Of a stretch of DNA of 64,000 nt, positions 3,106 through 24,556 are shown piece after piece. The DNA lies in the NCBI GenBank assembly GCA_047602425.1, contig JASGHG010000001.1:128001-192000 (forward strand), read 5' to 3'. A model generated the notes under the pieces. It was not told the origin of the DNA. It ran no database searches and saw nothing but the letters and a program-made list of their open reading frames with translations. The position numbers were made by a program, and so were the translations under genes. The stretch's first letter is position 1, and every line of letters starts with the position of its first letter. The stretch is from Nibricoccus sp. (GTDB taxonomy: Bacteria > Verrucomicrobiota > Verrucomicrobiia > Opitutales > Opitutaceae).

Positions 3106-3987
3106 ATGCCGAAAGTAATCTGCTTTGCGAACATGAAGGGGGGCGTCGGCAAAACAACGCTCTGTGTTAACCTCGCTTTTGAGATGTTTCTCACGGGGAA
3201 GAACGTCCTCATCGTCGATAATGATCCCCAGTTTAACGCCACGAGTGCCTTGCTCAAACCAGCAAAGTACTTGGACGACGTACTGAAGAACGAGACACGG
3301 AGCACGATCTATCACGTGTACGAAAAGGAACCTCGTGTTCTTGGAGCGAAGCCGAAAGCGCGGGATCCTCAAAGTTTCCTGTTTTCACGCTACAAGCTCA
3401 GATCCGGCAAAGGGCAACTGAGCGTTATCCCGTCCCAGATCGAACTCTACGAGACTTTGCGGAACCCTTCACAAAAAGAGTATCTGCTCGATCGTTTCTT
3501 AACCAATCATTGTTCACACTTCGACTACATCTTCATCGACTGCCCACCTACTCCGAGCGTGCTTACGCTTAGCGCATTTGCGGCTAGTGATTATGTCATC
3601 ATCCCAGTGCGCCCTGACTATTATTCCACCTTAGGGTTACCGCAGTTTCTCGGAACCTTGGAGGACTTCAAAGAAGATCAGGTTGATGGACACAAAATCG
3701 ATCCCCTGGGCGTCGTATTCACCAATGTCCCTCGGGTAAAATCACCGGAAACAGTAGCATCGATGAGGCGCGTGTCAGAAGCACTAGCCGCAGCACCATT
3801 CAACGTTCCGGTCTTTAAGCACCAAATGTCGTGCTACAAAGTTTACGAGAAAGCTCTGTGGCAGGCATCCCCCGTCAGCCAAGTGCGAGGTAAAGGCAGC
3901 GCAGCACGCGACGAAGCCGCGGCAGAATTACAGGGTATAGCGCTTGAGATGACCCAGTTGATTGACACTATTGCAAAGAAAAAATGA
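3106..3987 (+). CDS. Orphan ParA/Soj-family ATPase
   Basis: Deviant Walker A KGGVGKTT, A' VLIVDNDPQFNAT, Walker B YIFIDCPP, SDYVIIPV; no parB nearby. Confidence 0.92.
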   Translation: MPKVICFANMKGGVGKTTLCVNLAFEMFLTGKNVLIVDNDPQFNATSALLKPAKYLDDVLKNETRSTIYHVYEKEPRVLGAKPKARDPQSFLFSRYKLRSGKGQLSVIPSQIELYETLRNPSQKEYLLDRFLTNHCSHFDYIFIDCPPTPSVLTLSAFAASDYVIIPVRPDYYSTLGLPQFLGTLEDFKEDQVDGHKIDPLGVVFTNVPRVKSPETVASMRRVSEALAAAPFNVPVFKHQMSCYKVYEKALWQASPVSQVRGKGSAARDEAAAELQGIALEMTQLIDTIAKKK

Positions 3988-4526
3988 AGCAGCCCCCCTC
4001 AGGACTCCGTTTACTTCCTTTGATTGGATCCCTCAGCCCATCTGAGCTACGAAATCTGCGCGATATCGTAATATCAGAGGACAAGCGAGCTGCACTGCTC
4101 AGCCTCATAGAGTCGACGTTGCGGTTACACAGCAAAGGAGAGCAAATGGAGGTTGTGGACGCGGTGTATAGTGATCCCGCGCCCGCAGGGGAGTATTATT
4201 TGGTTCATCCAGACGAGGAAACATCTACCCAGCAGAAAGAGGCATTTTACATGCTCCTGATGGATCGAGGAGGCCTGCCGACTTCTCAAGACTTGATCCG
4301 CCTCGTTAATCGGATTTTGAACCTCGATTTACCTCCGCTTGAGGTAATGAAAAAGAGCCGCATGTCGATCATCGATCGTGCCTGGGATCGCTTCACCCAG
4401 CTCAGTAAAAAAGAAAAAAGTCGGATAATGAACGAGCTTTTGCGGCGCTTACCCGACGCAGCAAAAGGCAATTCTGAATACCAGCGGCTTTTCCGTTTTC
4501 TAACGCGAGATGAGCGCCGAGGTTGA
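3984..4526 (+). CDS. Hypothetical helical protein coupled to ParA
   Basis: ATGA overlap with the ParA stop; 180 aa; overlaps the next gene by 17 nt. Confidence 0.8.
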   Translation: MKQPPSGLRLLPLIGSLSPSELRNLRDIVISEDKRAALLSLIESTLRLHSKGEQMEVVDAVYSDPAPAGEYYLVHPDEETSTQQKEAFYMLLMDRGGLPTSQDLIRLVNRILNLDLPPLEVMKKSRMSIIDRAWDRFTQLSKKEKSRIMNELLRRLPDAAKGNSEYQRLFRFLTRDERRG

Positions 4527-5253
4527 GAAACAGGTTAAAGCTCTGGTCGCTGAGCGCATCAAGGCGCTAGAGGCAGAATGGGCAGTACCGGCAAGTGTTG
4601 TAGCAGCGGTCGAACCGCAGCTCCGACATGTGACAAAGATGCTTACTGGCGTTTGCTGCCTCGCGGGGTGCTTAGAAGGAAAACAACCGAGAGATGATTA
4701 TTTAATGCAGATCCCGGAGAACCTCTGGGTGGCCAGTATTCTCGCGCTTCGCGGTCACGTAAATGCAGCGAACGTCGCCGCTCGTCAGGCGATCGAACTG
4801 TTACTTAAACACCTCTACTTTTTGGATCATCCTGTGGAGTATCGGTGGGTCCAAACTGACGATAACCTGAAGGAATTCGGTTTTCAGTACCTTGTCGACT
4901 ACGTACAGCGTTTGCCGGAGTTCGATCGGTTTGAGGCGAAGAAACAGTGTGTGGACACTCTTTCTGCCGTTTTCGCAGAAACCAGCCGTTATGTTCATGT
5001 TCACAGCGCAAAATTTTTCAGCGGGGGTGGCGTCACGAAAAAGACCGAAGACGGGATTAAGTCCTTCAAGGAAGTTGGCGGTCGTCTGGAGAAAATAGTC
5101 CCGTGTATTTCCAGTCTCGTTACAGTGTATCAGTGGAATCACTACATGACCATCAGCCCGGCAGAGCAGAAAATGATCGCAATTTCGTGGAGTGCGCCGG
5201 TGAAGCAGGCAGTGTTGAGGTGGAAGCGAATCAACGACCTCGCTCGTACGTAG
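4510..5253 (+). CDS. HEPN-like protein (putative RNase effector)
   Basis: N-terminal helix AANVAARQAIELLLKHLYFLDHPVE and Rx4H-like motif SRYVHVH; all-helical appearance. Confidence 0.6.
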   Translation: MSAEVEKQVKALVAERIKALEAEWAVPASVVAAVEPQLRHVTKMLTGVCCLAGCLEGKQPRDDYLMQIPENLWVASILALRGHVNAANVAARQAIELLLKHLYFLDHPVEYRWVQTDDNLKEFGFQYLVDYVQRLPEFDRFEAKKQCVDTLSAVFAETSRYVHVHSAKFFSGGGVTKKTEDGIKSFKEVGGRLEKIVPCISSLVTVYQWNHYMTISPAEQKMIAISWSAPVKQAVLRWKRINDLART

Positions 5254-5380: not shown

Positions 5381-5917
5381 ATGAACCCTTCTCACCTCCG
5401 CCGACACGTCGAGCGTCTTAGATTTTCCTTTGAACTCGTTGACTGGGCGAACACCCGTTTTGAACTCCTAGCCAATCGGTACGTTGACGCGGGCTTTCCG
5501 GCATCCGATCGCGAATGGGTCGGCAAAGACTACGAAGCGGTATCAATGCTTTTGAAGTCAGGCAAAATCGATTTGCCCACTCTGAACGATGCCGATGGCA
5601 AAGCCATCTTCGCGCGGTTGGTGAATACCGAAAACTTCTCGTTCGCGATGAACAAAAGCCTACCCATTGCGAGCAGAATGGAATCACTGCTTTCTATGAT
5701 GAATGGTTTCCGCAATGTCCTCACGCGGTATTTGAACGAGGCCAACAAAGGTGCACCTCTAAATCGAGAACTTGCCGTACTCATGGGATTCTTGCTGCGC
5801 ATCGCATCCATTTCGGTAGCAGTCACCGACGAATTTATTCTCGCCCTACCTGACGACGATACCAAACCAATACGGCTGGAGGGCCTGGCGAAATTTCGCG
5901 CCTCGATTGCTATTTAA
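5381..5917 (+). CDS. Hypothetical protein
   Basis: 178-aa ORF from ATG 5381; the frame stays open for 74 more codons after the TAA. Confidence 0.55.
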   Translation: MNPSHLRRHVERLRFSFELVDWANTRFELLANRYVDAGFPASDREWVGKDYEAVSMLLKSGKIDLPTLNDADGKAIFARLVNTENFSFAMNKSLPIASRMESLLSMMNGFRNVLTRYLNEANKGAPLNRELAVLMGFLLRIASISVAVTDEFILALPDDDTKPIRLEGLAKFRASIAI

Positions 5918-6226
5918 TATACTGGAGTAGAGCAGTCCTTTTCCGAAACTAACTTTTACAAGTACGAGGATCTGTCCGTGCTATTGATCGCAATTCGCGA
6001 CACTCTGCCTGACACCGCAAAAGCCTTGAGCAAAGAATTTAGAACCGAGTTGCGGTTAAAGCTCAGTAAGCGCTCCAAACAGTTCATCACGAAAGATGAC
6101 CAAGCCGCGCTGCAGTCGATTTTGATTGAACTGTCGAAATAGGAGATGGAAACCCTCCCGCGTCGCAATCGGCCGGAGCGGTGTTGACGTTTAGCTATGG
6201 TGCATAGCTCAACGCGTCACTTTGCA

Positions 6227-6436
6227 ACCTACATTCATACTCCGAATGCGGCCCGCCGACATCCAATTAGCCGCCACCGGAACCGGAATGAGCTCTACCG
6301 GACTCCAACCACGGACAATCGGAGTCCGGTAGAGCGCATTCGGACTTCGGTAGACCACATTCGGACTACAATTGCGCGCATTCGGAGTCTGAATGGGGTC
6401 GTTCGGACTTTGAATGAGCTCATCATGCAAGCGGAT
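6227..6436. repeat. Degenerate tandem array of about 10 x 21-bp self-complementary units
   Basis: Units such as GAGCGCATTCGGACTTCGGTA, GACCACATTCGGACTACAATT and GCGCGCATTCGGAGTCTGAAT; consensus GAGCTC-ATTCGGA-C-TCCGAAT. Confidence 0.8.
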
Positions 6437-6688
6437 TGCGCAATCTTTCTTGCAGGATGTTGGCATCTGGCGAGTTGTTCCCCTCGTACGGCTTTCGATT
6501 TAGCGACCGTCATGCAAAACATGTGCAACCGAACTATAAGAATAGAACCAATATTTCTATACAACAACTAATAGCCAAAACTAATTCTATTTATGCCGGA
6601 TCATTTTCCGCGAACTCCGTACTATTCGCCCCACAAGGCGGGACCATGGTGGTGCCGCCGCATCACACAAAATAGAAAGTATACTACC

Positions 6689-7060
6689 ATGGCTACATCG
6701 CCAAAGTTCGCCGCTGAACGTTTCAAGAAAATCGACACCGCTTGGGAAACCAATCGCAAGGACAAGAAATTCGCGGGATATTCCCTCACGCAATTCCGGG
6801 TCAAAACCAAGCTCTGTGCCGACCTCCGCACGCGCCTGGAGGCAAACGCGAGCGAGCAAGTCACGCTTCGTGAATTGCGCACCAAGGCCGACAAAGATGC
6901 CTTGGAGGCGATCCGCCTCATCGTGAACGCGGTCAAGGCCGACGAGACCGAGGGCGAAGACGGCGAATTCTACACCGCGCTTGGCTACGTTCGCCGCAGC
7001 GAGCGCAAGTCCGGCCTCAGCCGCAAAGCCAAGGCCGCCGCAACTACCACCAAGGCCTAA
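6689..7060 (+). CDS. Small basic helical/coiled-coil hypothetical protein (123 aa)
   Basis: Host-like codon usage; C-terminal YTALGYVRRSERKSGLSRK; followed by REP-like hairpins and a terminator. Confidence 0.8.
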   Translation: MATSPKFAAERFKKIDTAWETNRKDKKFAGYSLTQFRVKTKLCADLRTRLEANASEQVTLRELRTKADKDALEAIRLIVNAVKADETEGEDGEFYTALGYVRRSERKSGLSRKAKAAATTTKA

Positions 7061-22321: not shown

Positions 22322-24556
22322 TCATTCCAATTTGAATTCGGTCTGGTCCGAGGCAGCGGGGGCGACGCCGAGAAACGGACCATAGCGTTCAAGCCAGTCA
22401 TCCATTTTCTTTAAGTAATATGCTGAATCGTAGGGACAACAGATCGGATCGAACGAGGCCAACGGGCGGGCGCGCTGCCAGTCGTTGGTTTTTCCTTTTT
22501 CCTTTGTCGTTATGTAGTAGCTCACACGGTCGCCCATTTTCGGACGAGGATTGAGCAACAGCGCCGCCTCGGCCGAGGCGCGGCGCGGTTTGCCGCCTTC
22601 GGCCACGAAGCGTTCGTAAGCATCGGGATTCTGGCTGAGTGTCTCCGCCTTGGCCAGGTCCGCGACAGGCAACGTCCGGTCTTTAATCCGGCGGCGATAT
22701 TCGGCGGTCAGTTCCAAGGGCGAATGTTTTTCCGCGCCGAGCAGGAACCGGATCAGCCCGTCGCTCAATTTTTTCAGATACGGTTCGGTTGCCCGCGACC
22801 GCAGCGCCGAGCCGCGCACCGTGATCTTCTGCCCATCGAAGAGGGCGTAGTTCTTCGCCTTGTAGCAAAACATCGCCTCGTAACTTCCGTCGTGCTCCAG
22901 ATCGATTCCGGTGGGCATCACCGACTCGACCGCCGCCAGCAACTTTTCGGGCTGGGCGAAAAAACTCTCCGACGAAAGATAGATGCCGTCGGTGTCCGCC
23001 TCGAGGATGGTGCAGCCGTGTTTGATAAATTCGTCGATCAACGCCTGCAAAAGATCGCGCCCGCGCCGTGTGACTTCCGCAGCCAATTCGCCATCGCCAA
23101 AACGCGCGCCGGAAAAACCGAGATAACCGTAGAATGAGTTGATCAGAATTTTGAAGTTCGCCTGCCGTGCCTGATATTCAACCCGCAGCTCCTCGGTTTC
23201 CGCCGTGCGTGCAAGGGTTTTATATTTCAATCGGTACTCGCGCAGCTGGCGTAACAGCGGGATGAATACGCCCAACGCGTCCGGCTTCGGATTGCGTCCG
23301 ATGTGGAGCAACAGACTCGGGTAGAGCGACGCTACGTCAAAGTGTAGGACGTGCTTGAATACGCCTTCCTGAAAACTGCGCGTGTAGCCGCCCTCGAATG
23401 GTTGCACTTCCGGCGGCACGGAACAGGCCCGGCGGGCGTGATAATATTCCTCCAGAAAGAGCAGATCGATTTTGCCAGTCGTGCCGCGGAGCGTGGCGTC
23501 CTGAAGAAAAATGGGAAAGGTTCGCGTCTGCTCAAAATACGTCGGCAGCAGCAAGTCGGCAACGCCCTTCGTCTCGCGCAAATCGTCGCCGAGGTACGCC
23601 AGAAACCGGGCCCGGTCTTTCACGAATTCGTGCTGGATGCTGTTGCCCTCGATGTAGGTTCGCTCGCCGCGTTCCTCCGCCTCTTCAGAGGTGATGCCGA
23701 AATAAACCGCCACGTCTTTCAACCCGTAGGCCGTCATCTCGCGCGTCGTGATGTCGTAAAGCTGAACCAACAGATAGGTATCAACGACAGCACGACCCGG
23801 CAGATCGCATCGCGGAAAATCGATCCAGCGCTCGGCCACCTTGAGCCGGCTGTTGCGAAACTTCGCCGTTTGTCCGAAGCGTCCCCACGCGCAGGGAACT
23901 TTGAAACGCTTCGCTCGCTGCCGCAGATAATCGAGGTCGAACTTGAAGATGTTGTGTCCCTCGATCACGTCCGGATCTTCGGTGCGCAGCACGTCGTTGA
24001 GTTGCAGCAGAAGTTTTTTCTCCGCCTCGTCCGTCATGTCCTCCAGAACGAGCAAGCGCTGGCGCGTGCCAAACTGTAGTCCGATCGCGAGCACGCGGTC
24101 AGCCGGTTGCGCGGCATTGCTAAAACCGCCGTCACCGGAGGCGGTTTCGATGTCGAGCTGGCAACGATGCAGCTGACCAAAAGTCATGTCGCGATAAAGA
24201 CGTTCGCGGCGTTGTAGCAAATACTGGCTCTCCAGCGGACGAATCACGTCGGTTGCGCCCTTGGTTTTCGCTTCGTCCAAGAGACGCTCATATGCTTCGA
24301 GCGAGTCGGCGATGAGCAACCGCGTGAACGTCCCCTCGCCTTCGAGCGGCTCGATCTTCGCTCCGAGCATGTCGCCACTCACCGCGTCCGCATTCAGCCA
24401 AGCGAAGGGTTTGAACGTTTCGACGCGTTCCTCGCGATGACCATCCGGCTTCGCGATCGCCACATGCGCGCGACCGGTGCCATCGACCCACAGCCCGCAC
24501 AACGAGCCCGCCCCATTTACTTTCGGCGCGGAGAGAGATGGAGAACCGGATTCCAT
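22322..24556 (-). CDS. polB: Family B DNA polymerase with 3'-5' exonuclease domain
   Basis: Exonuclease motifs LDIET and GHNIFKFD; polymerase motifs FDVASLYPS, KILINSFYGYLG, EADTDG. Confidence 0.88.
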   Translation of the reverse strand: MESGSPSLSAPKVNGAGSLCGLWVDGTGRAHVAIAKPDGHREERVETFKPFAWLNADAVSGDMLGAKIEPLEGEGTFTRLLIADSLEAYERLLDEAKTKGATDVIRPLESQYLLQRRERLYRDMTFGQLHRCQLDIETASGDGGFSNAAQPADRVLAIGLQFGTRQRLLVLEDMTDEAEKKLLLQLNDVLRTEDPDVIEGHNIFKFDLDYLRQRAKRFKVPCAWGRFGQTAKFRNSRLKVAERWIDFPRCDLPGRAVVDTYLLVQLYDITTREMTAYGLKDVAVYFGITSEEAEERGERTYIEGNSIQHEFVKDRARFLAYLGDDLRETKGVADLLLPTYFEQTRTFPIFLQDATLRGTTGKIDLLFLEEYYHARRACSVPPEVQPFEGGYTRSFQEGVFKHVLHFDVASLYPSLLLHIGRNPKPDALGVFIPLLRQLREYRLKYKTLARTAETEELRVEYQARQANFKILINSFYGYLGFSGARFGDGELAAEVTRRGRDLLQALIDEFIKHGCTILEADTDGIYLSSESFFAQPEKLLAAVESVMPTGIDLEHDGSYEAMFCYKAKNYALFDGQKITVRGSALRSRATEPYLKKLSDGLIRFLLGAEKHSPLELTAEYRRRIKDRTLPVADLAKAETLSQNPDAYERFVAEGGKPRRASAEAALLLNPRPKMGDRVSYYITTKEKGKTNDWQRARPLASFDPICCPYDSAYYLKKMDDWLERYGPFLGVAPAASDQTEFKLE

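Follow-up and report, generated by a model that had tools for sequence, protein, structure and literature searches.

Which kind of system is encoded by the three overlapping genes at positions 3106 to 5253 of a 64,000-nucleotide stretch of Nibricoccus sp. DNA (hereafter the window)? All three lie on the + strand: gene 1 (3106..3987; 293 amino acids, aa) codes for a ParA-type ATPase, gene 2 (3984..4526; 180 aa) for an all-helical protein, the predicted immunity/sensor subunit, and gene 3 (4510..5253; 247 aa) for a protein with an HEPN-like fold, the predicted RNase effector. Genes 1 and 2 overlap by an ATGA and genes 2 and 3 by 17 nt, as an open reading frame (ORF) check confirmed. A preliminary description had proposed that the trio is an undescribed system; this cannot be maintained, given that according to the published accounts RemAIN has already been named and tested and the layout has been catalogued as ParA-HeH subtype iv. 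We suggest that the cassette is probably a distant RemAIN homologue of that subtype, likely acting by abortive infection, with gene 3 cutting tRNA after the block by gene 2 is lifted. The cassette is thus a far-off, divergent member of a known system and no new class. The primary paper on RemAIN is reportedly that of Sargen and Helaine from 2024.

RemAIN comprises RemA, RemI and RemN, encoded by STM14_3218-3220 in the Gifsy-1 prophage of Salmonella Typhimurium 14028 (PMC13043305, PMC9879122, PMC12409363, PMC13492144). In these accounts it is an anti-phage system in which an HEPN anticodon nuclease works together with an ATPase (RemA) and an immunity protein (RemI) (PMC13043305, PMC12409363, PMC13492144), and deletion of remN alone has been used to abolish its activity in Salmonella (PMC13043305). 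The genes are described as acting during SOS-driven prophage induction, their deletion as yielding 2- to 4-fold more phage, and expression of the three genes alone as not triggering an RNA-repair reporter (PMC9879122). With a primer from the supplement of the latter paper, seven viral contigs were retrieved whose three ORFs measure 279, 130 and 220 aa. The outer two agree with the published lengths of 840 and 663 bp, and the middle one exceeds the 309 bp annotated. Alignments of RemA, RemI and RemN (11 sequences each) were built from 13 of 19 loci fetched with RemA.

Comparison of family profiles pairs the two systems one-to-one: (i) the cassette ParA with RemA (probability 100), (ii) gene 2 with RemI (hhalign probability 87.6, E=3.5e-6, 66 columns), and (iii) gene 3 with RemN (83.7, E 8e-6), and none of the six cross pairs scores above 0.54. 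Block-shuffled controls, 25 per pair, peak at a score of 24-25 compared with 41, and reversed controls fall far lower. In a 29,484-sequence decoy search, 11/11 RemN proteins (E 7e-7 to 0.008) outrank every ORF of the genome except gene 3 itself, and 6/11 RemI proteins (best E 0.002) outrank all except gene 2 itself. Both systems consist of three overlapping genes in the same order (ParA ATPase, small gene, HEPN gene), and PADLOC 2.0.0 misses both apart from a short P-loop match. Three observations weigh on the other side: the reverse searches are weak for gene 2/RemI and gene 3/RemN, a near alignment of 33 sequences by itself fails to align to RemN, and the tree grouping of the cassette ParAs with RemA has a modest basis (support 0.79 on 26 sequences). 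The homology is remote, yet it holds for all three genes together and in order.

Gene 1 matches Pfam AAA_31 (E=1e-40) and, as the preliminary description had stated, its ParA motifs are intact (NMKGGVGKT, DNDPQ and DYIFIDCPPT). The deviant Walker A motif NMKGGVGKT (3130..3156, +) is identical in 11/11 RemA proteins. Gene 1 also carries the PriB1/ConB1 marks, i.e. Asn and Val in Walker A (NMKGGVGKT) and Gln after DxD (DNDPQ), which are not discriminating because the ordinary ParAs compared carry them too. By length and identity comparison, a variable insert follows strand beta-2 (residues 43-109; 3232..3432, +): it spans 67-68 residues in nine cassette ParAs and 62 in the 11 RemA proteins, compared with 42-48 in four ordinary ParAs, and its mean identity is 44% against 78-79% in the core. 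Gene 1 is 57-61% identical to eight aligned full-length cassette ParAs and 33% identical to RemA. On the gene 1 profile all 11 RemA proteins score 127-146 bits, compared with 89 and 77 for the other ParA-like proteins of the genome, and in the tree the cassette ParAs cluster with RemA and apart from ordinary ParAs. The same genome holds a second stand-alone ParA-like gene (G000:C1:3571680-3572567) with the motif NYKGGVGKT, a 60-residue insert and no ParB beside it; its place in the small tree, next to the clades of the cassette and of RemA, suggests that this gene, too, may be a conflict-type ParA.

Alignments and a structure model of middling confidence (pLDDT 67) suggest that gene 2 consists of N-terminal helices, a disordered linker, a conserved C-terminal RemI-like domain and a terminal YxxLFxxL helix. 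The secondary structure of the model contains a helix-extended-helix-like pattern (4284..4400, +), in which helix 101-112 and helix 126-139 flank an extended segment; the invariant R126 lies within this stretch, which is also the stretch that aligns to RemI. The shared domain sits near the start of the 130-aa RemI but in the C-terminal half of gene 2, where about 50 residues of extra helices precede it. Gene 2 matched no Pfam, PADLOC or NCBIfam family, including no ParB/ParG family, and its profile found no sequence match in the PDB. By analogy with RemAIN and its RemI subunit, gene 2 would be the immunity/sensor subunit.

For gene 3, HEPN domains head the list of structural matches, in line with the HEPN fold foreseen in the preliminary description, and its profile found no sequence match in the PDB. 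Gene 3 itself matched no Pfam, PADLOC or NCBIfam family, and neither DUF5677 nor DUF6988. The missing families of genes 2 and 3 are no sign of novelty because PADLOC also misses RemI and RemN; a PADLOC run on the locus, which had been proposed as a check, assigned neither gene and returned only the short P-loop match. In word-based protein searches genes 2 and 3 recovered nothing but themselves, and a full HMMER search yielded 100 representatives related to gene 3, mostly of 230-250 aa, of which 84 were aligned after 16 short fragments had been dropped. None of these 84 matches a Pfam HEPN model at E<=0.01, so that membership of gene 3 in the MAE_18760 family is unsupported. Weak DUF5677 matches occur in 16/84 (best E 3e-5), and clusters bearing DUF6988 are found among Atlas look-alikes. 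A DUF6988 protein is described as part of a validated defence unit (PMC13092281), but the portions of the published descriptions at hand link neither DUF6988 nor DUF5677 to ParA.

Five gene 3 residues are invariant among the 84 relatives: R92, E96, H107, E110 and H163. The R92-x3-E96 motif (4783..4797, +; 84/84) aligns with R86-x3-E90 of RemN (11/11), and S159-x3-H163 (4984..4998, +) lies where the HEPN signature Rx4-6H sits and aligns with C138-x3-H142 of RemN (11/11), all four positions being in register; H163 is found in 84/84 relatives and S159 in 81/84, with Cys in the other three. The H107-x2-E110 motif (HPVE; 4828..4839, +; 84/84) is particular to the gene 3 family and falls in a gap of the alignment with the 220-aa RemN, which lacks this pair. 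The preliminary description had taken SRYVHVH as an Rx4-6H motif; the sequence is present, but R160 occurs with H165 in only 27/84 relatives and R-x4-6-H163 in 8/84, and the conserved histidine is H163 of the S-x3-H motif. In the corresponding position the tested nuclease RemN likewise carries C-x3-H, and deviating motifs have been described for other HEPN families (PMC3710099). As judged from these alignments, RemN-like nucleases use R-x3-E and [SC]-x3-H in place of the textbook motif. A further RemN relative (43% identity) lies on an Escherichia coli plasmid record (NZ_CP148393.1:17267-17896), the sole match among 72,556 plasmids.

A pattern derived from the 16 closest gene 3 relatives fetched 15 metagenome loci and one locus in a Desulfovibrio genome. 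Gene 2 lies directly upstream of gene 3 in 16/16 loci (15 by phmmer, the 16th by eye from its translation), and ParA lies upstream of both in 11 loci, the contigs of the other five ending first; conservation of the trio, which had been put forward as a check, is therefore borne out in every locus long enough to tell. Genes 2 and 3 overlap in 15/15 measured cases and nearly all junctions overlap, with start codons chosen by us. These are not 16 independent cases, since several loci come from related assemblies, and the context covers near relatives rather than the remote half of the gene 3 family. Gene 3 served to retrieve the loci, so that two-gene versions (ParA and gene 2) would have escaped notice whether or not they exist. 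In one locus the cassette ParA is split in two frames by a frameshift or an assembly error (L017:836-1740).

The cassette was not found in samples of 300 and of 400 other genomes of the host phylum, and 400 genomes of the phylum of Desulfovibrio gave, besides the known locus, one weak partial match (E 3e-4; genome G687), near which none of the listed ORFs is a ParA. Neither the viral contigs nor the plasmids searched held a match, phage records giving generic ParAs only. In Desulfovibrio the cassette stands alone between acetyl-CoA synthetase and hisS genes, with a GC content of 0.40 compared with 0.68-0.70 in the flanks. The AT-richer patch previously noted in Nibricoccus is likewise real: the trio has a GC content of 0.509, compared with a mean of 0.574 for the genome, within the lowest 2.9% of 5157 equal-sized windows, and GC at third codon positions (GC3) is 0.54-0.58 in its genes compared with 0.79 in the neighbouring TonB receptor gene. 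The cassette is thus rare and patchy in its distribution and looks foreign. RemAIN resides in a prophage, whereas the cassette lies on chromosomes and metagenome contigs among mostly housekeeping genes; no sign of the expected enrichment in defence islands emerged. Among direct neighbours a single gene looked defence-like, the one right behind the cassette at L020:2380-3117, which matches the PADLOC candidate PDC-S42 (E 1e-18).

Among other known systems, the ParA-HeH systems defined in a preprint by Li, Burroughs and Aravind (bioRxiv 10.64898/2026.10.19.760177) come closest to this layout. As described there, the ParA carries a variable insert behind beta-2 and is paired with a fast-evolving partner that has a helix-extended-helix domain and variable helical extensions; many systems have no third gene, and subtype iv adds one, e.g. 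for an HEPN RNase. The cassette resembles subtype iv (PHEPN1, ConB1 clade) in having ParA, a fast-evolving helical partner and a third, HEPN gene, as well as in the variable ParA insert, the variable N-terminal helical extension of the partner and Val in Walker A. This likening is based on the features described, and the preprint, which distinguishes 22 PHeH clusters, may already list the clade. Its Salmonella example, an antiphage tRNA anticodon nuclease involved in prophage competition, is to judge from the wording RemAIN. In 2013 Anantharaman et al. (PMC3710099) postulated a toxin-antitoxin dyad of ParA/Soj and an HEPN protein; in that ParA/Soj and MAE_18760 pair the ParA gene is upstream of the HEPN gene and a toxin-antitoxin logic was likewise proposed, but the dyad has two genes and the cassette three.

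Since the cassette matches RemAIN gene by gene, it likely stops phage infection by cutting tRNA. The steps that go beyond gene order, fold and homology are drawn from RemAIN and the preprint. In this scheme, gene 2 as immunity subunit would keep the complex off until a phage or induced-prophage signal is read by gene 2 or by the ParA insert, and gene 2 may sense invader DNA or protein by means of its helix-extended-helix part. ParA would function as an ATP-driven switch that in its ATP-bound form activates gene 3, which would dimerise and cleave tRNA anticodon loops; translation would come to a halt and few phage would leave the infected cell. The roles assigned in the preliminary description, with ParA as a switch, gene 2 as a regulator or antitoxin replacing ParB and gene 3 as an HEPN RNase, appear to fit conservation, fold and RemAIN homology. 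A more far-reaching version, which we regard as rather unlikely, is that the cassette represents a prophage-independent RemAIN-like branch with a rebuilt nuclease site (H107/E110 with R92/E96/H163) and hence either a novel HEPN chemistry or a target outside the tRNA anticodon, and in which the extra N-terminal helices of gene 2 respond to an invader signal of another kind.

Alternatively, following the model of Li, Burroughs and Aravind, ParA and gene 2 could be the primary effector: gene 2 would recognise invader DNA, the freed ParA would coat it or jam its partition, and the HEPN protein would be a back-up suicide step. The many ParA-HeH systems reported without a third gene (bioRxiv 10.64898/2026.10.19.760177) and the presence in gene 1 of the insert described in the preprint speak for this model. 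We nevertheless consider it improbable, in that deletion of remN alone is used to abolish RemAIN activity in Salmonella (PMC13043305) and gene 3 keeps five invariant polar residues. At a marginally lower probability, the cassette could be a selfish addiction or stress-dormancy toxin-antitoxin module, in which an RNase toxin encoded by gene 3 is restrained by gene 2 and ParA and phage defence is incidental. Its solo insertions amid housekeeping genes would suit such a module, as would the dyad postulated in 2013 (PMC3710099) and the action of the Salmonella genes in SOS-driven prophage induction (PMC9879122); however, the homologous RemAIN protects against phages (PMC13043305), and the cassette was not found on the plasmids searched, a frequent home of addiction modules.

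A partition or protein-positioning cassette, with gene 2 as an unrecognised ParB- or McdB-like adaptor and gene 3 as inactive cargo, is very improbable. The ParA motifs are intact and orphan ParAs are reported to position cargo (PMC9879122), but gene 2 matches RemI rather than any ParB/ParG family, and the distribution is rare and patchy. Moreover, replicon and phage genes are lacking nearby: a Pfam scan (E<=1e-6) of the 19 window ORFs at 5.4-30 kb found no rep, integrase or phage family. The two ParB_N matches of the genome lie outside the window, at 4.94 and 1.94 Mb, and no ParB gene is adjacent to the trio (no parS search was made); the earlier statement that neither parB nor a rep gene accompanies it thus stands for these scans. 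The homology to RemAIN remains the reading that we favor.

The repeats said to bound the patch do exist, but they are different sequences and form no bounding pair. An 18-nt exact tandem duplicate lies at 2761-2796 and a four-copy array of 21-nt direct repeats at 6315-6407, each at a single place in the genome. As they are mutually unrelated and single-locus, we rejected them as attachment sites. Within 6276-6407 the 21-nt array overlaps two inverted repeats with arms of 31 and 19 nt. Downstream follows a 155-aa ORF (6593-7060), the end of which has several DNA matches in a genome of the same genus (G168). Just 3' of the trio, a frame of about 253 codons (5381-6143, +) with one in-frame stop (5915-5917) is probably a pseudogene; it is single copy in the genome, and its first part matched nothing in Pfam or PADLOC. 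A short REP-like element (2520-2600) after the TonB receptor gene is matched 17 times in the genome by BLAST and several times in G168, and a gene for a family B DNA polymerase of 744 aa lies at 22325-24556 (-). Elsewhere in the genome there are two dense, similar tRNA gene arrays of 16 and at least 21 genes (G000:C1:2388522-2391778 and 2425174-2430547); arrays of this type are borne by some phages and mobile elements and could be of interest alongside a predicted tRNA nuclease.

The comparison singles out residues for mutation, namely K16 in gene 1, R126 and Y166 in gene 2, and R92, E96, H107, E110 and H163 in gene 3. The combination of R-x3-E and [SC]-x3-H helps to annotate RemN-like nucleases, because PADLOC 2.0.0 and Pfam miss them. 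If the proposed homology is correct, RemAIN-type systems, tested only in a Salmonella prophage, would be extended to unrelated bacteria, in which a divergent clade is carried on chromosomes.
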